Positions 1 to 34,266 of a DNA stretch of 64,000 nt are shown here, one piece after another. The notes under the pieces were generated by a model. That model was not told the origin of the DNA, did not search any database, and saw only the letters and a program-made list of their open reading frames with translations. The DNA comes from an uncultured Bacilli bacterium (GTDB taxonomy: Bacteria > Bacillota_I > Bacilli_A > RF39 > UBA660), in contig CAJUCD010000002.1 of the NCBI GenBank assembly GCA_910585045.1, positions 73,829 to 137,828 of the forward strand, given 5' to 3'. Both the position numbers and the translations under genes were made by a program. Every line of letters begins with the position of its first letter. Positions within the stretch are counted from its first letter, which is position 1.

Positions 1-26
1 GACTATTATAAAATTAAAGTCTTTTT

Positions 27-290
27 TTAATGATTATGTCTATGACATCCACTTTGTTTGTTATGTCCATGACCATTATTACTATGATTATTAACATAAT
101 TGCAATTATTATTTTTTGGACAATTATGTGTATTAGTTGTTTCATCATAGTAAGGACAGCTTTCGTTACTATATGGGCAGTTATGATTAAAGACTAGTGT
201 TTTATTTGCAGAGTTATTATCACCTAATGCATAAGCGGTTGTAAATGCTACAGTAAATGTGATTATTCCTGCTAATAAATATTTTTTCAT
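27..290 (-). CDS. Small secreted Cys/His-rich peptide. Signal peptide, then a mature part of about 65 aa with spaced Cys and a His-rich C-terminus. The likely start is the internal Met, which has a strong RBS.
   Basis: The minus-strand reverse complement shows AGGAGG followed 7 nt later by ATG AAA AAA TAT. The hydrophobic N-terminus is MKKYLLAGIITFTVAFTTAYA. The mature part contains CPYSNESCPY, CPKNNNC and GHGHNKQSGCHRHNH. Confidence 0.55.
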   Translation of the reverse strand: MKKYLLAGIITFTVAFTTAYALGDNNSANKTLVFNHNCPYSNESCPYYDETTNTHNCPKNNNCNYVNNHSNNGHGHNKQSGCHRHNH

Positions 291-422
291 GTTAAGTCCT
301 CCTTTATTCATAATTAATTATATAAATATTATGAGAAGATGTCAATTAGATATACTTTAATAAGAAGTAATTGTTATGCAAGTAATGTTGAGTTTTTGAA
401 GTATTTATGATAGCATAATGTT

Positions 423-1892
423 TTGAGGTGTTTTGTAGTGCAAGATATTGAAAATAGAATTAAAAATTTAATAGATAGTTTGGAATTTAGAAAAAAAGAG
501 TTATTAAATTCAAATAAAGATAGTGATGAATTAAAAGAAATAGATTTAGTTTTAAATAGAGTTAAAGATTTATACCAAGCTTATTTAGAAAAAGATGGAG
601 CTCTTAAACATAAAGTGGCTTTGGAGTTAGTTGCATATGTTAGAAGCCCTATATTTATGAGAATTATTAGAAAATGTAATAAAGGTATTGCAGCTTTTAT
701 GATGTTTGTAATTTTATTCTTGGCAAGTGCTTGTAATTCCAAAAATAGATATTCAGATAATAATAATGATAACGTTATTATTGGAAATACAGATAATTAT
801 CATTTTTGGCATGTTAAATTTGTTAATTTTGATGGAAGTGTTGAACATCAAGAAGTATTAAATTATAGTTTTTTAAAACCACAAATTGTCAAAAAAGTAG
901 ATGGATATAAATTTTTGGGTTGGTTTTTAAATGGACAGTTATATGATTTTAATATGCCAGTTCAAAGTGATTTAGAATTAGAAGCGAGATGGATTCCAGA
1001 AAAGTATCCTAATATAAAAGCATTAAGTGATTCTTTGGAAAACTTAGTTAGAGATTTAGGTTTAAATGGATTAATTTCTTCTAATGCAATTGATGATTTT
1101 ATTTTAGTAGGATTTGATATTCAAGATTTAGGAATTATTTTAGATATTTTAGAAAAAAATAAGGCTTTAGGTTATGATGTAGTGGTAGATTGTAAGGATA
1201 TTAATTTAAATAATTATAAGTTATTAGCAAATCTTCCAAGAGAATTTTTTTATTGGATATCAATTAGTGATGATTTTTCAAATGTTAATTTAGGAGAATA
1301 TCTTCAAGGGTTAAAAATTAATACGTTTGTTTTAGATTATAATGCTAATGTTAGTGAATCTGATTTAAAGAAATTATTACAAGTGAATGGCTTAAACTTA
1401 AAAATATATAGTAAAGTGTTTGATAAATATGCAAAATTAAGTACTTTAGCTTCAAATAGTAATATTGGTTCATTATCTTTGTCTTTAAATGCAAATGCTA
1501 ATGAGCAAGAAGTTGTTTTGCCTAATTATGAAATTGTTTTTGTGAGTAATTCTAATGATGTAAATGCCAATGTTGTTTTTCAAAATGGTTATGTATTAAT
1601 AGATTATGAGAACATGGATAATTTGAATGTTGCGGTTCCTGATAAGACAGTTGTTAGAATATGTTGCCCTAGTTTTGAAGATATTGGTTCTTTAGAGAAT
1701 TTATTTAAAAGTCCTATTTTTACTTCATTAAATAATATGGGTATGTTGGAAGTTTTTTGTTTTGATTTTTATGCAAGAGGAGAAATAACATCAGAAGGTA
1801 TTACTATGTATGACAATAATGGTATAAAATTGGGATATTTTGATGGTGAGAAATATCATAAAGTAAAATATTATGCGAGAACATTGCAATAA
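423..1892 (+). CDS. Surface lipoprotein with a Listeria-Bacteroides repeat (Flg_new-type) domain. The start is uncertain: the ORF-track start is a TTG, and a more plausible ATG lies near 658 just before the lipobox.
   Basis: A lipobox-like LFLASAC follows a hydrophobic stretch. The motif YKFLGWFLNGQLYDFNMPVQSDLELEARW matches the Listeria-Bacteroides repeat pattern. Confidence 0.5.
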   Translation: MRCFVVQDIENRIKNLIDSLEFRKKELLNSNKDSDELKEIDLVLNRVKDLYQAYLEKDGALKHKVALELVAYVRSPIFMRIIRKCNKGIAAFMMFVILFLASACNSKNRYSDNNNDNVIIGNTDNYHFWHVKFVNFDGSVEHQEVLNYSFLKPQIVKKVDGYKFLGWFLNGQLYDFNMPVQSDLELEARWIPEKYPNIKALSDSLENLVRDLGLNGLISSNAIDDFILVGFDIQDLGIILDILEKNKALGYDVVVDCKDINLNNYKLLANLPREFFYWISISDDFSNVNLGEYLQGLKINTFVLDYNANVSESDLKKLLQVNGLNLKIYSKVFDKYAKLSTLASNSNIGSLSLSLNANANEQEVVLPNYEIVFVSNSNDVNANVVFQNGYVLIDYENMDNLNVAVPDKTVVRICCPSFEDIGSLENLFKSPIFTSLNNMGMLEVFCFDFYARGEITSEGITMYDNNGIKLGYFDGEKYHKVKYYARTLQ

Positions 1893-4677: not shown

Positions 4678-5464
4678 TATATTATTGTTAGTAAATAATT
4701 TAGATATTGTGAAAGATTTAAAAGAAGAAAGTAATATTACTTTCCTTTTTCCTGTTAGTGAGTTTAGTGTGGGATTTGAAAGAACTTTTAGGGTTGAAGA
4801 GATTCCAGAAGGTTTTATTTTTGTAAATAGAATATTAGATAATGAGGGAATTGAAAAATTTAAGAAATTTATAGGAGCTTTACCTTCTAATATTAAAGGA
4901 ATAGTTTTTGATGATGTAGGCGTTTTAAATGTTTTATTAAAAGTTAATCTTAATATTACAAAAATATTATTTTTAAATCATTTAAATTGCAATTATGAAA
5001 GTGTTAATGCTTATTTAGATTTTGTTGATAGTGTAGTAGTGAGTACAGATATTACTATCGAAGAAATTGATGAGATTTTAAAGAAAGCTAAGAAACCAGT
5101 AGTTTTGTATACTTTCGGTCATATTAATATTATGTATTCTAGAAGAACACTTTTAACAAATTATAATAATCATTTTAAAAAGGATGTTCCAACTATAGCA
5201 GATTTGACAGAAAAAATTAGTGGAAAAAAATTTAAAGCTCAAGAGAGCATTTATGGGACAGTTATATATACAAATGAACCTTTTAATGGTCTAGAATTAC
5301 GAAATAGAGAAAATGTTTTGTTTAATTTAATAAATATGACTTTTTTTACCAATGAGAAAATGCTAGAGATAATTAAGAGTGATAGTAATTTAGAAGATAA
5401 ATATCCCTATAAGTATTTGAGTGCTGAAAAAACAATTGTTAAAATTAGTGATATTAAAGATTAA
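4664..5464 (+). CDS. Peptidase U32 family protein, YrrN-like partner subunit.
   Basis: Position and size match B. subtilis yrrN. It overlaps trmR by 14 nt. Confidence 0.5.
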   Translation: MKKNNILLLVNNLDIVKDLKEESNITFLFPVSEFSVGFERTFRVEEIPEGFIFVNRILDNEGIEKFKKFIGALPSNIKGIVFDDVGVLNVLLKVNLNITKILFLNHLNCNYESVNAYLDFVDSVVVSTDITIEEIDEILKKAKKPVVLYTFGHINIMYSRRTLLTNYNNHFKKDVPTIADLTEKISGKKFKAQESIYGTVIYTNEPFNGLELRNRENVLFNLINMTFFTNEKMLEIIKSDSNLEDKYPYKYLSAEKTIVKISDIKD

Positions 5465-5508
5465 ATTTTTAGAATAGCAATAAGAATGGATATAGTTTGG
5501 AGGCTAAT

Positions 5509-6696
5509 ATGATAGAATTACTAGCACCAGCAGGTAATTTAGATAGACTTAAAATAGCTTATCTTTATGGAGCTGATGCCACATATATTGGAGGATATAA
5601 TTATTCTTTGAGAGCTAATGCAATTAATTTTAGTGCAGAAGAATTAAAAGAAGCAGTAGAGTTTGCACATAGCTTAAATAAAAAAGTTTATGTAACAGTA
5701 AATATTGTACTACATAATAGTGATTTGGCAGGTTTAAAAGAGTATTTATTAGAATTAGAAAGTATAGGGGTTGATGCTGTAATAGTAAGTGATATTGCAG
5801 TTATTAATGTAATTAAAAATAATAATATTAATTTAGAAGTACATGTTTCAACACAAGCTAGTACCTTAAACTATGAGGCAGCTTTATTTTATAAATCATT
5901 AGGAGCTAAAAGAGTGGTTTTGGCAAGAGAGGCTACTAAAGATGATATAAAGATAATCAAAGATAAAACAGGTCTTGATTTGGAATGCTTTATTCAGGGG
6001 GCTATGTGTACTAGTTTTAGTGGGAAATGTGTATTATCAAATGTTGCAACTAATAGAGATTCTAATCGTGGTGGTTGTGCACAAATATGTCGATGGACTT
6101 TTGATATAAATAATGAAAATAATGTATTTAGTATGACACCTAAAGACCTTAATATGGCAGTATATCTAAAACAAATGATGGATATTGGAGTTAATTCTTT
6201 TAAAGTAGAAGGTAGAATGCGTTCGGTTTATTATATAGCAACTGTAATTTATGAATATCGTAATTTGTTTGATAAAATAAAAAGTAATACTTTAACTGAA
6301 AATGACATATTATATTCTAATGATGTCATTAATAGATGTGCTAATAGGGAAAGTGTACCACAATTCTTTGATGGGCAACCAACAGAAAAAGAGCAATATT
6401 ATTTAGGGAGAGATGAAGTTTCTAATCAAGATTTCTTAGGAATAGTATTGGATTCTTTAGAAGATAAGATTTTAATTGAGGAACGTAATTATTTTAAAGT
6501 TGGAGATGAAGTGGAATTTTTTGGGCCAGGAATTGAAACTTTTTCTTATAAGATTGGGGAAATTTTGGATGAGAAGATGGAGTGTATTGAAGTTGCAAGA
6601 CATCCTAGAATGCATGTTTATTTACGACATGATAAGAAACTTCCAAAGGGTACTATGATGCGATTAAAAGTATTTGACAAAAAGATGTATTTGTAG
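5509..6696 (+). CDS. Peptidase U32 family protein, YrrO/PrtC-like (tRNA U34 hydroxylation-associated).
   Basis: ELLAPAGNLDRLKIAYLYGADA is the U32 N-terminal signature. GGAGG sits 5 nt upstream of the ATG at 5509. The ORF-track start at 5497 is a TTG. Confidence 0.8.
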   Translation: MIELLAPAGNLDRLKIAYLYGADATYIGGYNYSLRANAINFSAEELKEAVEFAHSLNKKVYVTVNIVLHNSDLAGLKEYLLELESIGVDAVIVSDIAVINVIKNNNINLEVHVSTQASTLNYEAALFYKSLGAKRVVLAREATKDDIKIIKDKTGLDLECFIQGAMCTSFSGKCVLSNVATNRDSNRGGCAQICRWTFDINNENNVFSMTPKDLNMAVYLKQMMDIGVNSFKVEGRMRSVYYIATVIYEYRNLFDKIKSNTLTENDILYSNDVINRCANRESVPQFFDGQPTEKEQYYLGRDEVSNQDFLGIVLDSLEDKILIEERNYFKVGDEVEFFGPGIETFSYKIGEILDEKMECIEVARHPRMHVYLRHDKKLPKGTMMRLKVFDKKMYL

Positions 6697-6735: not shown

Positions 6736-7203
6736 ATGAAAAAAGAAAATAAAGTAGTATTAACTCCGCAGGGTTATTTGGAACTAGAAGCAGAGTTAAA
6801 TGATTTGAAGTTAAATAAAAGACCAGAAGTAATAAGTTCACTTAAATATGCACGTAGTTTAGGGGATTTATCAGAGAATGCTGATTATGATGCAGCACGT
6901 AATGAGCAAGCTCAATTAGAAAGTAGAATTAAAGAGTTAGAATATAAATTGGAACATTGTGAAATTGTAGATAATAAAGATAAAAATGTTGCTAATGTAG
7001 GTTCTACAATTGTTGTAGAGTATGATGAAGATGATACAGAAGAATTTAAAATTGTAGGTTCTTTAGAAGCTGATCCGTTTAATAATAAGATTTCAAATGA
7101 ATCACCAATAGGTAAGGCTGTTATTGGACATAAAGCAGGTGAAAAAATCATGGTTGATAGTCCAAATGGTTCATATGAAGTGCTTCTTAAGAGTGTTGCC
7201 TAA
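6736..7203 (+). CDS. greA: Transcription elongation factor GreA.
   Basis: The coiled-coil N-domain and the GreA C-terminal signature, including motifs ARSLGDLSENADYDAAR and IGKAVIGHKAGE. RBS GAGGTGA. Confidence 0.9.
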   Translation: MKKENKVVLTPQGYLELEAELNDLKLNKRPEVISSLKYARSLGDLSENADYDAARNEQAQLESRIKELEYKLEHCEIVDNKDKNVANVGSTIVVEYDEDDTEEFKIVGSLEADPFNNKISNESPIGKAVIGHKAGEKIMVDSPNGSYEVLLKSVA

Positions 7204-7319
7204 AAATTTGTTGTAATTTAAAATTAAATATGTTATAATTTTTTAGAACCCAAGAAAATAATCCGCTTATTTTGATAATGATTATTGGTTTAATAAATAT
7301 AGAGAAAGGATGTTGTTTG

Positions 7320-7682
7320 ATGGCAAATTTAGTTGATAAGATTAATAGCAAGCATATCAAAAAAGACATACCAGAATTTCGTGTTGGAGATACTGTTCGA
7401 GTAGACGTATGGGTTAAAGAAGGAAAAAAAGAAAGAATTCAAGCATTTGAAGGTTTAGTAATTGCTAAAAAAGGTGCTGGAATATCTGAGACTTTTTCAG
7501 TAAGAAAAAAATCTGGAGGAGTTGGGGTAGTTCGTGTTTTTCCTGTTAATACTCCTACAATTGATAAAATTGTGGTAATTAAAAAAGGTTTGGTTAGACG
7601 TGCTAAACTTAATTTTATTAAAGATATGCGTAAAGAATATCGTGTTAAAGAAAGAAACGATAGTGTTAAAGCTGAGAATTAA
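7320..7682 (+). CDS. rplS: 50S ribosomal protein L19.
   Basis: L19 motifs FRVGDTVRV and ISETFSVRK. The likely start MANLV has an RBS AGAAAGGA. The track start at 7272 is probably too far upstream. Confidence 0.85.
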   Translation: MANLVDKINSKHIKKDIPEFRVGDTVRVDVWVKEGKKERIQAFEGLVIAKKGAGISETFSVRKKSGGVGVVRVFPVNTPTIDKIVVIKKGLVRRAKLNFIKDMRKEYRVKERNDSVKAEN

Positions 7683-22517: not shown

Positions 22518-23804
22518 ATGTTAGAATATAAACTAATTTTATTTAAAAAGGGGCGAATAAAATTGGAAAAAAGAGTGTTTTTAAAACGGGTAGAGGATAT
22601 TTTAAATACTAAAGATTGGTCGGGCATTGCTAAGAGTTATATTAAGGGAGCAGCTAAATTTGTCTATGAAAATTATGCACCACATGATTATTATAAAGTT
22701 TCAATTTTTAATTATTTAGAAAGATTTCTCTATATTTTAAATAATATGAAGGACTTTAAAGTTGTAGAGTTTGCAGATTTTGGTTTAGAAGTTGAATATA
22801 TGGATTATTTTAGGTCGCAAGTTAGGGTAGCAAATGGAAATGATGGTACTTTAGATATTGTAGATGGTCAATTTGTACCTGCGGTTAGAGGTCGTTATAG
22901 TTGTCCATTGTCTGGTTATGCTGACTTAAATAAAAGAAACGTTTATTTATTAAGTGAAAGTGATAAAGTTTTTCGTCATTTAAATATTGTACATGAACTT
23001 ACACATTTAGATGATGGTAAATATTCATTTCCAGTTGGTAAATTACCTTTTGGAGCAGATTTTAGAAAAATGTGTATAGAAGGTAAAGCAGTTTTTCATG
23101 AAACTTTATTTGGCACTCAAATAGAAGATGGAGCATGGTGTGATAATATTAATGATGAAAAACACCATTTACAAATATATTCTGATTCGTGTTCTTACCC
23201 TTTATATGAAATTTTGTATAAATTATTGATTTTGATTTTCGGGGTAGAGACAATTGAGAAAATGTCTAAAAATACAGATGCAGGACTTAATATGATTGAA
23301 ACTTTAAAAGCAATGTATCCAAATCTTCCAGTTTATGAAATATATGCTCACTTTGTTTATATTTTAGCTATGTTTGATGATAACTCTAAATCATTTATTA
23401 AAAATACTATTAATATTTTTAGAAAATCACAGTATAGTTTATTTTCGCAAGAACAAGCTAATTATAAAAATTATATCCGTGCTTTGAGAGAGTTACATAG
23501 AAATATTATGCAAGCTCAAGATAAAGCTTCATATAATGAATTTAAGAAAATATTTATATTTGCTTTAAAAGAAACTCAAGCATCAAAAGAGAAAATGCTA
23601 GCATTAAAGGATGAGAGTTTAACTTATGCTTTGATGGATATATGTGTTAAAAATGGTGATTTGATAGCATCTTTTGACTTTTTAATAAATGTTGCTAATA
23701 TGGTTATCTTTAGTAGCAAAACAGTTGATGAATCTATGGCTAAAGAGTTAGGTAATATAAGAAATACTTTAATTGAAGCAAGAGAATTAGGTAATATTAG
23801 ATAA
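22518..23804 (+). CDS. Hypothetical 428-aa protein with an HExxH motif (possible zinc-metallopeptidase-like fold).
   Basis: NIVHELTHLDDG, with a downstream Glu candidate in FHETLFG. No clear RBS, so the start is uncertain. Confidence 0.4.
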   Translation: MLEYKLILFKKGRIKLEKRVFLKRVEDILNTKDWSGIAKSYIKGAAKFVYENYAPHDYYKVSIFNYLERFLYILNNMKDFKVVEFADFGLEVEYMDYFRSQVRVANGNDGTLDIVDGQFVPAVRGRYSCPLSGYADLNKRNVYLLSESDKVFRHLNIVHELTHLDDGKYSFPVGKLPFGADFRKMCIEGKAVFHETLFGTQIEDGAWCDNINDEKHHLQIYSDSCSYPLYEILYKLLILIFGVETIEKMSKNTDAGLNMIETLKAMYPNLPVYEIYAHFVYILAMFDDNSKSFIKNTINIFRKSQYSLFSQEQANYKNYIRALRELHRNIMQAQDKASYNEFKKIFIFALKETQASKEKMLALKDESLTYALMDICVKNGDLIASFDFLINVANMVIFSSKTVDESMAKELGNIRNTLIEARELGNIR

Positions 23805-23918: not shown

Positions 23919-26042
23919 ATGGTGTTTAAGTGTAAAATGTGTGGTGGTGATATTACCCCTAAACAAGGAACAAATATAGGAATATGTAGTTATTGTAAAA
24001 GTACCATGACTTTGCCTAATTTAGAAGATGAGAAAATAGTAAATTTATATAATAGAGCTAATGATTTAAGACTAGCTAATAGGTTTGATGAAGCAAAAGA
24101 AATATATGAAAAGATTTTATTAATTAATAATGCTGAAATAGAAGCTCATTGGGGAATATTACTTTGTAGATACGGGATTGAGTATGTAGATGATCCTAAT
24201 ACTAATAAGAAAATTCCAACTTGTCATAGAACTATTGATAGTTCAATTTTGGTAGATGCAGATTTTAAATTTATAAAAAAGGAAGCTTATGGTGAAGTTT
24301 TAGAATTATATAAAAATGAAGCTAAAGTTATTGATGAAATTCAAAATGGTATATTATCTATTTCAAAAAAGGAAAAGCCTTATGATGTATTTATATGTTA
24401 TAAAGAGACTGATGAGGCAGGAGAAAGAACTAAAGATTCAGTTATAGCAGAAGATATTTATGATAAATTAGTTCTACAAGGCTTAAAAGTATTTTTTGCA
24501 AGAATTACTTTAGAAAGTAAATTAGGAATGGAATATGAACCTTATATTTATTCAGCTTTAAAGTCAGCTAAAGTAATGTTAGTGGTTGGAACAAAGGAAG
24601 AACATTTTAATGCTGTTTGGGTAAAAAATGAATGGTTAAGATTCTTAGAAATGATGAAAACCAATAAAGAAAAACATTTGATTCCTGTTTATAGTGGTAT
24701 TGATGCTTATAAATTACCAGAAGAATTTGCTATGTTACAAGCTCAAAATATGGATAAAATAGGAGCGATGCAAGATATAGTAAGAGGAATAAAAAAGATT
24801 TTAGATGAATATAAAGATGATTCAGAATATGAGGAAATAAATAAAGAAACTATTGAAAAAGTGGCGGCGGCTATAGGTGATGCCAGAAGTTTAGGAAATG
24901 GTTCTTATGAAGTAACTGTAGTAAAAGAGAGACTTCCTGTATGGTATTACTTGTTAATTAGTGCGACATTTGTTTTTGGTTTTTTCTTTTCATTAATGCT
25001 ATTAAGTAATGAAGTATTTTATCATTTGGTAACAAAAGAAAGCTATAGTGTTATCGACTTAATAAGATATGTTACTGGTAATGGGTTACTAATATTGTGG
25101 GGAATGTTTGTTTTGTTCATGATAATAAGTTTACTTTGTTTTATTATAAATCGTAAAACATTTAAGTTGAGAAAATACTTTTTAATAACAGGGCTATTAA
25201 TTTTTTTAGAGTTTAATATGTTACCTATAAAATATGGTTATATGCCATTTAGATTTCCTTTTGTTTTAAATATTAGAGATTTAGATGGAGTCTTCTTTTT
25301 CTATTTTATATTTGTAACTTTGTTTTTATTATTGTGGTTTATAAAGCCAACTTGGCAAATTAATACTAGTGGAAAAACTTTGATGAATGAAGAAGAAAAA
25401 AATAAACAATTGGCTAAAAATCAAGAAATTAAAAATAATTTTAGTAGAAAAGATGATTCTAAAGTAAATAAAAAATTTCTACTAGGGATATTTTTAACAT
25501 TAGTTGTTTTATTCTTTATTAATATTTATACATCACTAGCAGCTTGTAAAGGTACTAATAAGGATGATACTATAGATCAAGTAGAAATAATGGTAAGCAA
25601 AGAAATGACTAAGTTACCAGGCAGTAAATATTATAATGGACAGGTAAAAAAAGGGGAATTTTATAATTTAATAAATGTAGTTGTTAAAGATAATAAGATG
25701 TATCTAGGAATCAAAAATAAGGCGGGAATTTTTGGTTATATAAATAGAGCTAGTGTGAATATTAATTGTGTTTCTGATAAATGTTTGCAAATGTTTAAAC
25801 AAACAAATGATAGAAATCCAGAAGTAAAACAGCTAATAGTAACAACTGAATATATAAATATTCGTGCTAGTTCATATGCATCTAGTGTCAACTTGGGAAG
25901 GGTTTATAAAGATGAAATATATACTATTTTAGATAAAGCTGGTTATCAAGAAATTTGGTATAAAATAAAAACATCAAATGGAATAGAAGGATGGATTGCA
26001 GGCAGTTTTAATAAAGAAAAAATGGTAGATATTTTAGATTAG
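23919..26042 (+). CDS. Transmembrane TIR-domain protein. It has an N-terminal zinc ribbon, a TPR-like region, a TIR domain, 5 TM helices and C-terminal extracellular SH3b domain(s).
   Basis: CKMCGG...CSYCKS; KPYDVFICYKETD...KVFFARI...VMLVVGT...WVKNEWLRFLE (TIR pattern); the SH3b segment YINIRASS...GWIAGSF. Confidence 0.7.
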   Translation: MVFKCKMCGGDITPKQGTNIGICSYCKSTMTLPNLEDEKIVNLYNRANDLRLANRFDEAKEIYEKILLINNAEIEAHWGILLCRYGIEYVDDPNTNKKIPTCHRTIDSSILVDADFKFIKKEAYGEVLELYKNEAKVIDEIQNGILSISKKEKPYDVFICYKETDEAGERTKDSVIAEDIYDKLVLQGLKVFFARITLESKLGMEYEPYIYSALKSAKVMLVVGTKEEHFNAVWVKNEWLRFLEMMKTNKEKHLIPVYSGIDAYKLPEEFAMLQAQNMDKIGAMQDIVRGIKKILDEYKDDSEYEEINKETIEKVAAAIGDARSLGNGSYEVTVVKERLPVWYYLLISATFVFGFFFSLMLLSNEVFYHLVTKESYSVIDLIRYVTGNGLLILWGMFVLFMIISLLCFIINRKTFKLRKYFLITGLLIFLEFNMLPIKYGYMPFRFPFVLNIRDLDGVFFFYFIFVTLFLLLWFIKPTWQINTSGKTLMNEEEKNKQLAKNQEIKNNFSRKDDSKVNKKFLLGIFLTLVVLFFINIYTSLAACKGTNKDDTIDQVEIMVSKEMTKLPGSKYYNGQVKKGEFYNLINVVVKDNKMYLGIKNKAGIFGYINRASVNINCVSDKCLQMFKQTNDRNPEVKQLIVTTEYINIRASSYASSVNLGRVYKDEIYTILDKAGYQEIWYKIKTSNGIEGWIAGSFNKEKMVDILD

Positions 26043-26058: not shown

Positions 26059-27126
26059 ATGGCATTATTTGAAGTAATAAAAAAAGCAAAAGATGATAAA
26101 AATATTGTTTGGCGATATCCGAAACAGAATTTTAATACAGGATCAAAGTTAATTGTTAATGAGTCAGAAGAAGCGCTGTTCTTTTCTTGTGGTGAAGCCT
26201 TAGATTTATTTGGGCCTGGTAGATATACATTAAATACTAATAATATTCCTTTATTAAGAAGATTATTAGATATTCCAACAGGTGGAAAAACTTCTTTTAC
26301 AAGTGAAGTGTATTTTATTGATAAAACTGTTAGGCAAACAAAATGGGGAACATCATCAAAATTAGAGTTTTTGGAACCAATCTATAAATTTCCTATACAA
26401 ATTGGAGCATGTGGAGAAATACGTTTTGAAATTGAAGATTCTCGAAAATTGTTAGTAAAGCTAGTAGGCATTAAACGAAATTTTGATATTAATAATATAG
26501 ATGATTTTTTTGCTAATCAAATACTTGTGAAGGTTAAAGCTTATTTGACGGGAATAATTAAAGAAGAAAAAATAAGTATTTTTGAGATTGATGAAAAATT
26601 AGATAAAATAAGTAGAGAATTAAAAGAATTATTAAAAAATGATTTTCAAGAATTTGGCATTAAAATAGATAATTTCTTTTTAAGTAATATTGCAAAGCCT
26701 GAAGATGATAAACAATATCTAAAATTTAAAGAGTTATACTTTAAAAAAGGAGTTTTAATTGCAGATGTACAATTAGATAAAGAAATATCAGATATTGAAG
26801 CAGAAAAAGAGGCTAGTAGAATAGGAATTACGGCAAAAGGTATAGCTACAAAAAGAAAAACAGAAGGTTATTCTTATCAAGAGGAAAAAAGCTTGGAGAT
26901 TGGTAAGGAAGTGGCTAGAAATGAAGCAATGGGACAATTTACTAATATTGGAGTTGGTCTGGGTGTAATGAGTGGTACTTCAAATGTTTTAGGAAGTGAA
27001 GTTACAAAACAGGTTCAAGGAGCTTTTATGAATTTGAATGAAAAATTTTGTTCTTATTGTGGACAGAAACTTAATAATGAAGCACTATTTTGTTTTAAGT
27101 GTGGAAAGAAGGTAAGTGATGAGTAA
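26059..27126 (+). CDS. SPFH/band-7 domain protein with a C-terminal zinc ribbon (COG4260, virion-core-protein-like family; same family as B. subtilis YdjI).
   Basis: The N-terminus MALFEVIKKAKD...IVWRYP...FGPGRYTLNTNNIPLL is typical of COG4260. C-terminal zinc ribbon CSYCGQKL...CFKCGKK. Confidence 0.65.
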   Translation: MALFEVIKKAKDDKNIVWRYPKQNFNTGSKLIVNESEEALFFSCGEALDLFGPGRYTLNTNNIPLLRRLLDIPTGGKTSFTSEVYFIDKTVRQTKWGTSSKLEFLEPIYKFPIQIGACGEIRFEIEDSRKLLVKLVGIKRNFDINNIDDFFANQILVKVKAYLTGIIKEEKISIFEIDEKLDKISRELKELLKNDFQEFGIKIDNFFLSNIAKPEDDKQYLKFKELYFKKGVLIADVQLDKEISDIEAEKEASRIGITAKGIATKRKTEGYSYQEEKSLEIGKEVARNEAMGQFTNIGVGLGVMSGTSNVLGSEVTKQVQGAFMNLNEKFCSYCGQKLNNEALFCFKCGKKVSDE

Positions 27127-28360
27127 GAGTACTAAGATTATATTGTTAGTTGGGGTGTTGTCTTTTATTGTTTTTTTAGTAGTAGCATATTTTCATTATC
27201 AAGGTAGTTCAGATATAGTATTTTTGACCTCAAAAGATTCTTATGCAGATAATTATGCTAAAAAGCATTTTTTGGATGTTGAATATGTTTCTAATATGGA
27301 AAAGAATAAGTATCAAAGAAAATTAGAAAATTTTGATTATAAAATTGATAAGGGAATTACTATTACAGGTTATAAAGGTAAAAGTTCAAGATTAGTAGTG
27401 CCAGCTGTTATTAGGGGCATAAAAGTTTTAGAAATAGAGGCAGATATATTAAATAATAAAAATATTGAAACATTAGTATTATCTAGTAATATAGAAAAAA
27501 TAGATAAAGAAAAATTTAAGAGTGTTAATATTGAATGTTTTGCTAATTCTTTTTGTTTAGAGTTAAAAGAAACAGATGGCATGAATGTAACAATTTTAGA
27601 TGATTCAGAATTTGTAGATTTTAATAATTATTTAGATGAATATGCTTATGAGTTAAATGATGGCCAAGTAGAAATTATAAGGTATGATGGTCAAGATTCT
27701 TATCCAATAATTCCTAATACTATCAATGGTTATCAAGTTAAAACTATAACTTTTGCGGCTAATAATATTAAAGGTATATATATTCCTGATACAGTAGATT
27801 ATATAGGAAATAACTTTATTATGAAGCATTTAAATAGAACGTATTTAACGGTGGTTTTAGGTAATTTAGGGGCTTTGATAATATTTGTAGTTGTAAATAT
27901 ATTTAATAAGAGTAAAAAATTAGAAGAGATAAGCGCTAATTCAATTATTAGTATTATAAGTATAATATATTTAGGAATTATTTATTATTTTTCTTATAAT
28001 ATAAATATATTTTTAGACTATAAATGGTATATTATAAAGACATTAATCGGAACATTTATTTATATTTTACTCATAGTTTCTCTTTATTTAGGATTAAGTA
28101 ATAGAAAGAAATATACTAGTAGTATTAAATATAAAAAAGAGTTTTTAAATGAAACATTAAATTTGTTAGATGATGTTGATTCAAATGATGAATATAATTT
28201 AAGAGAGTTAATTAGATATTCAGAACCAATATCTACTGACCAAGTAAAAGATATAGAATATAAAATCCTAGAATTAATTACAAATATAAGTAAAGATAAT
28301 GTAGAGGAAATAAAAAAGCTTATTAAGAAAAGAAATAATGTTTTAAAGCAAAATAAATAA
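27116..28360 (+). CDS. Membrane protein with an extracytoplasmic BspA-type leucine-rich repeat region, 3-4 further TM helices and a C-terminal coiled-coil tail.
   Basis: BspA-LRR-like spacing: ITITGYKGKSSRLVVPAVIRGIKVLEIEADIL...IIPNTINGYQVKTITFAANNIKGIYIPDTVDYIGNNFI. Overlaps the SPFH gene by 11 nt. Confidence 0.5.
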   Translation: MMSKSTKIILLVGVLSFIVFLVVAYFHYQGSSDIVFLTSKDSYADNYAKKHFLDVEYVSNMEKNKYQRKLENFDYKIDKGITITGYKGKSSRLVVPAVIRGIKVLEIEADILNNKNIETLVLSSNIEKIDKEKFKSVNIECFANSFCLELKETDGMNVTILDDSEFVDFNNYLDEYAYELNDGQVEIIRYDGQDSYPIIPNTINGYQVKTITFAANNIKGIYIPDTVDYIGNNFIMKHLNRTYLTVVLGNLGALIIFVVVNIFNKSKKLEEISANSIISIISIIYLGIIYYFSYNINIFLDYKWYIIKTLIGTFIYILLIVSLYLGLSNRKKYTSSIKYKKEFLNETLNLLDDVDSNDEYNLRELIRYSEPISTDQVKDIEYKILELITNISKDNVEEIKKLIKKRNNVLKQNK

Positions 28361-28382
28361 GTATCTTAATTGATACTTTTTT
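28359..28382 (+). terminator. Rho-independent terminator ending the TIR/SPFH/LRR transcription unit.
   Basis: Hairpin AAGTATC-TTAATT-GATACTT followed by a T-run. Confidence 0.6.
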
Positions 28383-28409: not shown

Positions 28410-28438
28410 TTGACAAGTGCTAAGCATAATATTATAAT
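28410..28438 (+). promoter_or_regulatory. Consensus sigma-A promoter of the hrcA operon (TTGACA-N17-TATAAT).
   Basis: Exact -35 and -10 hexamers with a 17-nt spacer. Confidence 0.7.
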
Positions 28439-28442
28439 GGTA

Positions 28443-28469
28443 TTAGCACTGAAGGTTAGTTAGTGCTAA
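28443..28469 (+). promoter_or_regulatory. CIRCE operator (HrcA binding site).
   Basis: TTAGCACTG-N9-TAGTGCTAA, compared with the consensus TTAGCACTC-N9-GAGTGCTAA. Confidence 0.8.

Positions 28470-30040: not shown

Positions 30041-30054
<14 letters not shown>
29491..30054 (+). CDS. grpE: Nucleotide exchange factor GrpE.
   Basis: GrpE coiled-coil and the C-terminal beta-domain motif MRPAMV. Confidence 0.85.
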
Positions 30055-32423
<2,369 letters not shown>

Positions 32424-32472: not shown

Positions 32473-34266
32473 ATGGCAAAATTAAGAGAAGATTATGAAG
32501 AAAAGTTAAAGTGGAATGTTAAAGATTTGTTTGCATCTGAAGATGATTATTTAAAGATGGTTGATGAATTAAGTTCTTCATTAGAAAAGTTTAAAGTTTT
32601 TAAAGGTAAATTATTAAGTAGTGCTAAGACATTGTATGATTTTTTGAGTTTTGATAATAACTTTAATAGTAATTTAGAACAAGTTTATATTTATGCTCAT
32701 ATTCAAAATGACCAAGATACTACTAATACTAAGTATCAAGCGATGTATGGTAAAGCATATAAATTATATGAGCGATATAATGAAGAAACAGCTTTTGTTA
32801 TTCCAGAATTATTAAAAGGTGATTTTAGTACTATTAAAGAATTTATAAAAGAATGCAAAGAATTAGAAGATTATGAACGAGAACTAAAAGATATTTTTAA
32901 GTTTAAAGCTCATACTTTAAGCGATGAAGAAGAACGATTATTATCATCACTATCTAGTGCATTTAAAACTCCTGATGATGTTTTCTCGATGCTTACTGAT
33001 GCAGATTTGAAATTTGGAGATATTGTTAATGAAGATGGTAAAAGTGAAGAATTAACAGAAAAAAGTTATCGTAAATTTATTGAAAGTAGTAATCGTAATG
33101 TAAGAAAGAAAGCCTTTAATAAATTATTAGAGACTTATGGTAATTATAAAAATACTTATGCGTCTTTATTAGCAAGAGAAGTAGGTCTTAATAATAAAAA
33201 AGCTGAAATAAGACATTATGGTAGTGCTTTGGAGTCTTCTTTATATCGTAATGATATTCCAGTAGAAATATATGATAATTTAGTAAATTCAGTAAAAAGA
33301 AATGTTAAGCCTTTATCTATGTTTTGGAATTTAAAAAAGAAAGCCTTAGGAGTTACTAAATTGCATTTATATGATGCTAATGCGCCAATAACTAAGATGG
33401 TTACTCATCATTATAGTGTAGATGAGGCTAAAGATTTATTAATGAAATCTTTGAGACCTTTAGGCGAGACTTATTTAAATGACTTGAACCGAGCTTTTGA
33501 AGAAAGATGGATAGATTTTTGTTCAAATGATGGAAAGAGAAATGGAGCTTATTGTACAGCTTGTTATAATGTGCATCCTTATGTATTATTAAGTTTTGAT
33601 GGTTCACTTAATAATGTTTCTACTTTAGCTCATGAACTTGGGCATGCAATGCATTATCATTATGCTATTAAAAATCAAAAGTATCAAGATTATGGTTATT
33701 CTATTTTTGTAGCAGAGGTAGCTAGTCAAGTAAATCAGATTTTGCTTAGTAAATATTTAATTAGTAAATCAAGTGATAAAGAAGAAAAAAAGTATTTAAT
33801 TGATGATTTAATTAGAGATTTTAAAGCAACAATTTATCGTCAGACAATGTTTGCAGAATTTGAAAAATTAATTCATGAAAAAGAAGCTAGTGGAGAAATA
33901 CTTACTTATGATGTTATGTGTGATATTTATTATAATTTGAATAAGGAATATATGGGACGTAATATTGTAGTTGATGATGTTATAAAATATGAGTGGGAAA
34001 GAGTTCCTCATTTCTATATGAATTTTTATGTGTATCAGTATGCCACTGCTTATGCGGCAGCAATTAAAATTGCTCAAGATATATTGAATAATAAGTCTGG
34101 GGCAGTAGAGAAATATTTAGAATTTTTAGGTTTAGGTTGTACTAAAACTCCTATTGATTCTTTACTAGTTGCAGGTGTTGATATGACTAAGCAAGAAACT
34201 TTAGATGAAGCATTTAAATATTTCTTGGAACTAGTAAAAGAGTTAGAAAATCTATATAATGAATAG
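32473..34266 (+). CDS. pepF: Oligoendopeptidase F (M3B).
   Basis: M3 signature HELGHAMH and a length of about 600 aa. Confidence 0.85.
   Translation: MAKLREDYEEKLKWNVKDLFASEDDYLKMVDELSSSLEKFKVFKGKLLSSAKTLYDFLSFDNNFNSNLEQVYIYAHIQNDQDTTNTKYQAMYGKAYKLYERYNEETAFVIPELLKGDFSTIKEFIKECKELEDYERELKDIFKFKAHTLSDEEERLLSSLSSAFKTPDDVFSMLTDADLKFGDIVNEDGKSEELTEKSYRKFIESSNRNVRKKAFNKLLETYGNYKNTYASLLAREVGLNNKKAEIRHYGSALESSLYRNDIPVEIYDNLVNSVKRNVKPLSMFWNLKKKALGVTKLHLYDANAPITKMVTHHYSVDEAKDLLMKSLRPLGETYLNDLNRAFEERWIDFCSNDGKRNGAYCTACYNVHPYVLLSFDGSLNNVSTLAHELGHAMHYHYAIKNQKYQDYGYSIFVAEVASQVNQILLSKYLISKSSDKEEKKYLIDDLIRDFKATIYRQTMFAEFEKLIHEKEASGEILTYDVMCDIYYNLNKEYMGRNIVVDDVIKYEWERVPHFYMNFYVYQYATAYAAAIKIAQDILNNKSGAVEKYLEFLGLGCTKTPIDSLLVAGVDMTKQETLDEAFKYFLELVKELENLYNE

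Follow-up and report, generated by a model that had tools for sequence, protein, structure and literature searches.

A three-gene locus

Three closely packed genes on the + strand of a 64,000-nt stretch of DNA from an uncultured Bacilli bacterium (GTDB lineage RF39, UBA660; assembly GCA_910585045.1, contig CAJUCD010000002.1, forward-strand positions 73,829 to 137,828; the whole stretch is referred to below as the window) encode a membrane TIR protein (gene 1), a soluble SPFH protein (gene 2) and a protein with four predicted transmembrane (TM) segments and a leucine-rich repeat (LRR)-type ectodomain (gene 3) (Table 1). It was gene 3 that had drawn attention, since an original prediction, made from the letters of the sequence, saw in it a BspA-type LRR membrane protein and, in its place beside a TIR gene, the logic of an innate-immune receptor divided over separate polypeptides. 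The comparisons described here identify gene 3 as the predicted membrane subunit of a widespread module of gut Firmicutes with three conserved components: a Zn-ribbon-TPR-TIR protein, which mostly spans the membrane and has an extracellular domain of variable type; an SPFH protein of the Band_7_1 kind, soluble and with zinc ribbons at its C-terminus; and a four-TM protein whose cytoplasmic helical tail carries the motifs I[RK]YSDPxS ... RNxxCK.

Kyte-Doolittle hydropathy gave four hydrophobic segments in the gene 3 product (residues 7-25, 241-262, 275-294 and 303-326), and their orientation was assigned by the positive-inside rule over 61 members of its family. Across these members lysine and arginine (K/R) make up 42% of the N-terminus, 19% of the loop between the second and third segments and 24% of the start of the tail, and 9% of the 213-aa TM1-TM2 segment, which has a net charge of -13. 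On that rule the repeat region lies outside the cell, and the protein is predicted to have its N-terminus inside, an ectodomain of ~210 residues outside and its C-terminus inside; TM1 may be a cleavable signal peptide, and the ectodomain would be outside in either case. The N-terminal anchor that had been proposed thus corresponds to TM1, and the proposed extracytoplasmic region is somewhat shorter than the ~230 residues first given to it. Of the three or four further TM helices envisaged, hydropathy found three and not four. The tail, proposed to be a charged coiled coil, is indeed helical, its AlphaFold2 (AF2) model showing a bundle of four helices (residues 341-353, 361-366, 374-388 and 395-412) rather than a demonstrated coiled coil. 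It carries RYSEPIS at residues 366-372 (nt 28214-28234) and a C-terminal KKRNNVLK.

The conserved core of gene 3

A search with TM2-4 and the tail alone produced 677 proteins. Among the 120 listed, almost every one is 232-234 aa long, those named by source came from metagenome-assembled genomes of Clostridia or Eubacterium, and none of the 120 has a Pfam domain. These 233-aa proteins consist of TM1, a loop of ~14 aa, TM2-4 and the same tail (KKVYEAIRYSDPMS ... RNKKCK), and comparison of their profile (A6) with that of the LRR-bearing family (A2) gave an hhalign match of 99.94% (E 3.7e-37) over residues 235-413 of the window protein. The hallmarks of the 233-aa four-TM tail family are the motif I[RK]YSDPxS, a C-terminal RNxxCK and a position directly after a Band_7_1 gene, and gene 3 has counterparts of all three in RYSEPIS, KKRNNVLK and an 8-nt overlap with its SPFH gene. 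As judged from these alignments, the conserved half of the gene 3 protein is TM2-4 with the cytoplasmic tail, and not the LRR. Since the 233-aa form has a loop of ~14 aa in the place of the ectodomain, the LRR is an expansion of extracellular loop 1, which in this gut Bacilli lineage has grown from ~14 to ~210 aa via a tandem pair of abbreviated BspA-type LRR modules.

Association with SPFH and TIR genes across lineages

The neighbourhoods of the four-TM gene were examined in 17 lineages, five of them LRR-less and 12 LRR-bearing, the latter being those whose upstream region could be seen. An SPFH gene lies upstream in 11 of the LRR-bearing and all five of the LRR-less lineages (16/17), immediately so in 15 of the 16 and with one gene between in L051, and the tight packing of the SPFH gene and gene 3 is seen again in the homologous loci, with gaps of -1 to +13 nt. 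A TIR_2 gene is present in the same cluster in 15 of these 16 SPFH-linked lineages. The 11 LRR-bearing lineages that have both partners (window, L001, L003, L004, L007/8, L009-11, L012, L013, L014/15, L017-19 and L051) show 23-56% identity to the window protein and have unrelated flanks. The five LRR-less lineages are L047/48, L049/50, L052/53, L055-57 and L054, which is plasmid pNP21 of Butyrivibrio fibrisolvens, and all except pNP21 have a clustered Zn-ribbon-TPR-TIR_2 gene. The TIR gene precedes the SPFH gene in Bacilli and follows the four-TM gene in several Clostridia, a variability that argues against simple inherited synteny.

The original prediction had asked whether homologs of gene 3 are always adjacent to TIR and SPFH genes, and such adjacency proved not to be universal. 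In L020-L022, mraY and ftsW enclose a full-length member of the LRR family (hhalign 100%; L021 5998-7194, L020 3638-4837, and also in L022), in the slot that murD usually holds and with a PBP2B/PASTA gene upstream. Neither a TIR nor an SPFH gene is present within 6 kb of it, and the YSDPxS motif has been lost from its tail. A locus search with profile A4 returned five genome and 26 metagenome loci, most of them with unrelated LRR proteins.

Several of the loci have peculiarities of their own. In L002 (1561-2979), a Zn-ribbon-TPR open reading frame (ORF) of 183 aa and a separate TIR_2 ORF of 286 aa directly follow the LRR four-TM gene; jointly they are 64% identical to the cytoplasmic part of the window TIR protein, are without its TM/SH3 part and have no SPFH gene downstream, and the pair looks like a split or second TIR gene. 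The L051 locus, which has a one-module LRR, has a 346-aa single-TM protein (4939-5979) between the SPFH and LRR four-TM genes, and a stand-alone TIR of 151 aa (7079-7534) before a 723-aa TPR-TIR protein. On pNP21 (NZ_CP146965.1; L054 6414-9809), the one match from a named organism and not from a metagenome-assembled genome, a gene for SPFH with DZR is followed by the four-TM tail gene as two ORFs (109 and 145 aa), an apparent frameshift, and then by a Zn-ribbon-TPR gene.

The LRR-type ectodomain

Searches of Pfam, NCBIfam and PADLOC with the full-length gene 3 product gave nothing useful. The ectodomain alone matched Pfam LRR_5, the profile by which the original prediction was to be checked, at E=0.0016 and 18.8 bits, below the gathering cut-off of 27.7 bits, and only four of the 61 family members match LRR_5 at E<=0.01; a search of the PDB with the single ectodomain sequence found no LRR. 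The family profile, A2, built from the 61 full-length members, was more informative: it matched seven PDB chains, all of them BspA-type LRRs (4gt6, 8.5e-15; 6mlx, which is TpLRR, 2.3e-9; 4h09, 9e-9; 4fs7, 1e-6; 4fdw, 4oju and 4fd0), and no non-LRR chain. A HMMER search of a representative library yielded 3,900 relatives, of which ~60 among the 150 listed were full-length proteins of 400-450 aa. Many giant multi-repeat surface proteins among the matches listed repeatedly match the stretches 69-137 and 172-236 of the ectodomain, and comparable partial matches from outside the family in the indexed database carry a precomputed PF13306 (LRR_5) assignment. The BspA-like periodicity first noticed in the sequence was upheld at the level of the family, and the motifs quoted for it correspond to the two modules described below.

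An AF2 model from a 13-sequence alignment had a predicted local distance difference test (pLDDT) score of 85.6 with all residues at 50 or above (a two-sequence alignment gave 47), and its ectodomain shows the alternation of short strand and short helix expected for BspA-type repeats. TpLRR was the top and only notable PDB match of this model in Foldseek (E 2.4e-3, probability 0.99). A point against an LRR-type fold is that superposition on TpLRR was poor overall (TM-score 0.28, root-mean-square deviation 16.5), which fits an organization of the ectodomain as two modules, not one solenoid. The duplication is evident in the sequence: residues 71-131 (module A) align with 174-233 (module B) with an hhalign value of 99.5% (E 2.3e-22), and the beta-alpha-beta 'GSYAxxYA' caps that precede them, residues 32-59 and 135-162, align at 95.5%. 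Within the family profile, module A aligns to the N-terminus of TpLRR (6mlx residues 11-79, domain E 2.2e-7) and to the repeats of 4gt6, and is also the site of the sub-threshold LRR_5 stretch, while module B aligns to 4gt6 residues 13-82. Two cysteines of the second cap are semi-conserved, Cys140 in 47/61 members and Cys146 in 29/61. A cap-like stretch occurs in giant repeat proteins as well, e.g., 'GSYAQTFAKEQGIPF' in P0030, a motif resemblance by eye only. The number of modules varies, the window protein having two and P0257 (356 aa) and L004 (308 aa) one, and some matches are longer (P0041, 647 aa; P0052, 534 aa).

Taken with the profile matches, these features mark the ectodomain as belonging to the BspA-type LRR superfamily in a divergent and abbreviated form, made of two mini-modules of ~2-3 repeats each. 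It shares with the known representatives (PF13306; 6MLX, 4GT6, 4H09, 4FS7) the N-cap hairpin 'F.Y.....I.I..Y.G....L.IP..I.G..V..I', repeats of the form 'v..i.IP.sV..I', the 'GSYAxxYA' element and an extracytoplasmic place. It differs from them in repeat number, as these have 6-20 or more, and in being inserted into loop 1 of a polytopic membrane protein, whereas they are secreted or wall-anchored. A right-handed beta-solenoid of many (typically at least six) ~23-aa repeats is not what the ectodomain forms.

The TIR and SPFH partners

The N-terminal ~330 residues of gene 1 are highly conserved among its homologues and comprise the zinc ribbon (FKCKMCGG...C.YC), the TPR-like region and the TIR domain, in which WVKNEW, the motif with the catalytic-position Glu, is kept in five distant homologues. 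Based on hydropathy and K/R-rich loops, this Zn-ribbon-TPR-TIR part is predicted to be inside the cell and the SH3_3 domain outside. The C-terminal part varies from homologue to homologue, consisting of five TM segments and SH3_3 in the window protein, of one TM segment and DUF6273 in others, of a TM2 domain in others again, and of something else in L051; in the 432-aa version of L047 no hydrophobic segment was found. DUF6273 has been reported to be C-type-lectin-like and to be a target domain of diversity-generating retroelements in phage receptor-binding proteins (PMC10743442). In gene 2 no TM or hydrophobic segment was detected by hydropathy.

Across loci, identity is 56-85% for the cytoplasmic part of the TIR protein and 46-75% for the SPFH protein, whereas the LRR ectodomain has 24-56% and the TM/SH3 part of the TIR protein 27-49%. 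On the predicted topologies, then, it is the extracellular parts that diverge much faster than the cytoplasmic ones. The very high conservation of the TIR domain, together with its catalytic-type Glu, suggests that it is an enzyme and not a scaffold.

A 428-aa ORF (22518-23804, +) lies directly upstream of the TIR gene and was considered as a fourth component. It was rejected, as it is not conserved beside the trio, being absent there in the closest relative, L001, and unrelated to the upstream gene of L007. The ORF has an HExxH motif (NIVHELTHLDDG) and no Pfam, NCBIfam or PADLOC match.

Start codon, operon ends and neighbouring genes

The gene 3 ORF can begin at a GTG (27116) or an ATG (27119) and ends at 28360 on the + strand. 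The ATG is most likely the true start, since it has a Shine-Dalgarno sequence 6 nt upstream, an identical metagenomic protein (P0001) was called from this Met, and the alignments of all gene 3 homologues start with it. As the SPFH stop codon is TAA 27124-27126, a start at the ATG gives an overlap of 8 nt between the two genes; the overlap originally described is thus real, and its length of 11 nt applies only to the GTG.

Directly after the gene 3 stop lies a hairpin that was missed by our terminator scan because its stem has fewer than three G-C pairs, and which is likely a weak terminator ending the operon. The next gene, hrcA, has its own 12/12 sigma-70 promoter (TTGACA-17-TATAAT, 28410-28438), with a CIRCE-like inverted repeat with two mismatches (28443-28469) between promoter and gene, and these mark the downstream boundary of the TIR-SPFH-LRR operon. 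The heat-shock operon beyond is interrupted in two places: by a 182-aa ORF without Pfam match (30041-30589, +) that overlaps both grpE, at its end, and dnaK, at its start, and by a PepF oligoendopeptidase gene (Peptidase_M3, 5.5e-70; 32473-34266, +) between dnaK and dnaJ. The window as a whole has ~26% G+C, a GC skew that is positive throughout (+0.24 to +0.45), and all of its listed ORFs of at least 150 aa on the + strand.

Table 1. Features of the TIR-SPFH-LRR operon, with window coordinates and the residues of the respective protein
Feature	Position (nt)	Residues	Strand	Remarks
Gene 1, membrane TIR protein	23919..26042	707 aa	+	N-terminal CxxC...CxxC zinc ribbon, TPR-like helical region, TIR_2, TM segments, SH3_3
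Gene 1 TIR_2	24387-24740	157-274	+	Pfam 7.2e-10
Gene 1 Glu238 (WVKNEW)	24630-24632	238	+	Aligns with WCLNEL of plant SNC1 TIR; catalytic-position Glu
Gene 1 TM helices, ~5	24939-25550	~341-544	+	Hydropathy
Gene 1 SH3_3	25854-26009	646-697	+	Pfam 3.9e-8
Gene 2, soluble SPFH protein	26059..27126	355 aa	+	Pfam Band_7_1 5.5e-38, Zn_Ribbon_1 3.8e-5
Gene 2 Band_7_1	26107-26724	17-222	+	
Gene 2 C-terminal zinc ribbon	27043-27114	~329-352	+	
Shine-Dalgarno AGAAGG	27107..27112		+	Within 3' end of SPFH gene, 6 nt upstream of ATG 27119; read from sequence
Gene 3, four-TM protein with LRR-type ectodomain	27119..28360	413 aa	+	AF2 model, pLDDT 85.6
TM1	27137..27193	7-25	+	Predicted signal anchor, N-terminus inside; Kyte-Doolittle maximum 3.02
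First cap, xSYAxxYAKK	27212..27295	32-59	+	AF2 strand 34-37, helix 42-49, strand 53-56
LRR module A	27329..27511	71-131	+	N-cap hairpin FDYKI/ITITGY and ~2 BspA-type repeats
Second cap	27521..27604	135-162	+	hhalign to first cap; semi-conserved Cys140, Cys146
LRR module B	27638..27817	174-233	+	Hairpin YAYEL/QVEIIRY and ~2 repeats; duplicate of A
TM2-TM4	27839..28096	241-326	+	First part of core common with 233-aa LRR-less family
Cytoplasmic helical tail	28097..28357	327-413	+	RYSEPIS and C-terminal KKRNxxxK; conserved columns in A2, A3, A5, A6
AT-rich hairpin AGTATC-ttaatt-GATACT + TTTTTT	28360..28382		+	Directly after gene 3 stop; read from sequence

Comparison with known systems

Open-access articles in PubMed Central (PMC) and bioRxiv preprints were consulted on the association of TIR and SPFH proteins, and no description of the trio was found there; it does relate to known bacterial TIR systems and to modules in which an SPFH protein has membrane partners. 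Among the latter, the nearest is PspA-YdjG-YdjH-YdjI of Bacillus subtilis, a Firmicute operon in which a TM-less Band_7_1 SPFH protein is joined by integral membrane partners, one with a zinc ribbon (PMC8581546), and in the trio too a TM-less Band_7_1 protein is flanked by two polytopic membrane proteins. However, the partners in the trio are a TIR protein and a four-TM tail protein, and because no PspA domain occurs among the neighbours in the window or the related loci, the trio is not a Psp-Ydj module. HflK/C-FtsH and stomatin-NfeD are likewise pairs that link the gene for an SPFH protein with that of a client or partner in the membrane, suggesting a scaffold or cage that regulates a membrane enzyme; in the trio the SPFH protein is of the Band_7_1 subfamily without a TM segment of its own, and the client is a TIR protein, not a protease.

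With the bacterial TIR defence systems (Thoeris ThsB/ThsA, TIR-STING CBASS, Pycsar PycTIR, the PADLOC candidate PDC-S66) the trio shares a TIR_2 domain with a catalytic-type Glu and, for some loci, a place in defence islands. It differs in having no SIR2, Macro or SLOG effector, cyclase or STING nearby, in the fusion of its TIR to a Zn-ribbon-TPR region and, mostly, to a membrane span with ectodomain, and in its obligatory SPFH and four-TM partners. It is not Thoeris, because neither the window nor 17 related loci have a ThsA (SIR2-SLOG or Macro-TM) among their neighbouring genes, nor was there any PADLOC match to Thoeris.

The likeness to animal Toll-like receptors (TLRs) is that an extracellular LRR and a cytoplasmic TIR belong to one membrane-associated unit. 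No polypeptide with the order LRR-TM-TIR is present, and an LRR outside and a TIR inside are what the topologies predict. The trio has these domains on separate polypeptides (gene 3 and gene 1), the ectodomain of its TIR protein is SH3_3, its LRR is BspA-type, tiny and dispensable in most homologous systems, and an SPFH component is added. In addition, the trio TIR has the enzyme-type Glu, whereas the TIRs of TLRs are scaffolds. Since its LRR is optional and sits on another chain than its TIR, the trio is not a TLR, and there is no sign of common descent of the two architectures.

Function of the module

The module probably serves in an envelope-linked phage defence, and the mechanism that we favour, for and against which the balance is about even, is that the four-TM protein tethers an SPFH scaffold, that the scaffold controls TIR clustering, and that an event at the envelope, acting via the ectodomains, triggers an NAD+-consuming TIR activity. 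In this mechanism, the four-TM protein would hold the TM-less SPFH scaffold at the inner membrane face, its tail motif binding the SPFH protein or else the TIR protein's TPR, and the SPFH assembly would gather or restrain the cytoplasmic domains of the TIR protein. A disturbance of the envelope (phage adsorption, phage injection and wall damage are candidate triggers) would be sensed by the ectodomains, i.e., the LRR on gene 3 and SH3_3 on gene 1, and change TIR clustering, with NAD+ consumption leading to growth arrest or abortive infection. The LRR itself would be an added, fast-evolving specificity for surface binding, and not the core sensor.

A precedent for the tethering step is that in B. 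subtilis the TM-less Band_7_1 protein YdjI gets to the membrane and recruits PspA only with the help of the membrane proteins YdjG and YdjH (PMC8581546; PMC9239133). That the module acts in defence is suggested by the swapping of TIR ectodomains between systems (SH3_3, DUF6273, TM2) and by the location of several of its loci in defence or mobile islands with IetAS, Kiwa, ToxN or Abi_2. One of these is a Clostridial contig (L047 1-12702) that has two TIR_2 genes, an SPFH gene and a 233-aa four-TM gene, with IetA/IetS directly after the trio (PADLOC E 5e-38 and 3e-64), KwaB/KwaA of Kiwa and a serine recombinase. L055 lies between an upstream integrase and a downstream ToxN; L007 is flanked by PemK, a serine recombinase and Abi_2, and L013 by TnpV and a recombinase fragment; the L051 locus carries an integrase; and pNP21, a 20-kb plasmid, also has a YoeB/RelB toxin-antitoxin pair and a restriction S subunit.

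Several results weigh against a role in defence. In PADLOC-DB 2.0.0 the SPFH and four-TM proteins have no match and the sole match of the TIR protein, to PDC-S66, is weak (E 2.6e-4 and 1.3e-3), the Zn-ribbon-TPR partner on pNP21 has no detectable TIR, and no relatives of the gene 3 family were found in 50,697 phage genomes and IMG/VR. Many of the loci, including the window, have housekeeping flanks (hrcA-dnaK, serS, feoB, ack-pta). Cell-wall biology is indicated by the SH3_3 domain, by the orphan family member in the dcw cluster and by a polysaccharide deacetylase that accompanies the trio in three loci (window, L001, L004). An origin of the genes as prophage cargo was also considered and is not supported, there being no relatives in phage genomes or IMG/VR.

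These last points are also the substance of the main rival, to which we give a definite if minor share of likelihood, namely that the trio is an envelope-stress or cell-wall maintenance complex that surveys the membrane in the manner of YdjG/H-YdjI. The SPFH protein would then organize membrane domains, SH3_3, a cell-wall-binding type of domain, and the LRR would contact peptidoglycan or wall polymers, and the TIR would be a scaffold or a local generator of NAD-derived signals. Such a role draws on Band_7_1 being the family of YdjI, which depends on two integral membrane partners whose loss delocalises the peptidoglycan synthesis machinery (PMC8581546; PMC9239133), and, besides the deacetylase, SH3_3 and the housekeeping flanks, on the position of the orphan between mraY and ftsW after a PBP2B gene. 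What tells against it is that PspA or any other known stress effector is missing from every locus examined, that the conserved catalytic-type Glu and very high TIR conservation favour an enzyme over a scaffold, that several loci lie within mobile or defence islands, and that the module is patchily distributed, changes its gene order and swaps its ectodomains, as conflict systems typically do.

It is unlikely, by comparison, that the trio is a split TLR in which the LRR of gene 3 is essential for ligand recognition and signals across the membrane to the separate TIR. An extracellular LRR and an intracellular TIR do occur together in one tight operon in 11 LRR-bearing lineages, and no part of the trio evolves faster than the LRR ectodomain. 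What the original prediction said of a BspA-type LRR outside, a TIR inside and tight coupling to SPFH has stood, the two locations as predictions, and the linkage to TIR and SPFH genes is conserved further than synteny alone; its TLR-like logic is only partly supported, since the LRR is an optional add-on. Most relatives are of the 233-aa form, with ~14 aa instead of the LRR and the same SPFH and TIR neighbours, which speaks against the LRR as the recognition module of the system. Nor is the proposed division of recognition and signalling over polypeptides supported as it stood, the TIR protein being itself a TM protein with a variable ectodomain, so that recognition outside and TIR inside are already combined on a single polypeptide. 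Further difficulties are the existence of one-module and two-module variants, the full-length LRR member without TIR or SPFH in L020-L022, and the abbreviated modules, whose ~2-3 repeats are not a TLR-like solenoid.

Still less credible is that the gene 3 protein is a stand-alone BspA-like adhesin, for attachment to the host or between cells, whose adjacency to TIR and SPFH genes is meaningless. BspA-type LRR proteins are typically surface adhesins (T. forsythia BspA, T. denticola LrrA), and among the matches listed the closest relatives of the ectodomain are giant surface repeat proteins, but adjacency to SPFH is kept down to 23% identity, amid unrelated flanks, with overlapping or abutting genes and also in the LRR-less paralogues, and what is conserved in the protein is its other half, the TM and tail module that faces the cytoplasm. 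Finally, the view that the LRR-like periodicity is a chance or compositional effect of an AT-rich genome and the ectodomain no LRR at all, as might be argued from the LRR_5 score below threshold, the PDB search with a single sequence, the 4/61 members with LRR_5 and the low Foldseek TM-scores, can practically be set aside in the face of seven PDB chains, all BspA-type, matched down to 8.5e-15, of 3,900 representative-library relatives with multi-repeat surface proteins dominant among those listed, of PF13306 in non-family matches, of TpLRR as top Foldseek match (probability 0.99) and of an internal duplication at E 2e-22.

Implications

Our main interest is in the conserved TIR-SPFH-four-TM module more than in the LRR that decorates it. 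One conserved module in which a TIR that looks catalytically competent, and whose extracellular domains can be swapped, is joined to an SPFH scaffold and its own membrane adaptor would be new, and would suggest either a new control of TIR activity, by gating in membrane microdomains, or a first example of sensing from the envelope side. A role would thereby be found for a Band_7_1 SPFH subfamily and for the 233-aa family, which is abundant in gut Clostridia and has no annotation. If the trio is instead an envelope-maintenance complex, it would extend the YdjI paradigm and link SPFH proteins to NAD-based signalling.

Known bacterial TIR systems have been described as sensing infection from inside the cell. 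A bolder proposal, which we put forward tentatively and regard as well short of probable, is that the trio represents a class of surface-sensing TIR immune receptor complex, in which the SPFH scaffold and four-TM adaptor would gate a membrane TIR enzyme while swappable ectodomains (LRR, SH3b, DUF6273) would detect phage contact or a breach of the envelope from outside, before or at genome entry. If true, bacteria would have a TIR signalling that runs from outside to inside and converges in function with that of TLRs. The LRR version in the window, as a natural gain-of-ectodomain variant, could be used to test whether it is the ectodomains that set specificity.

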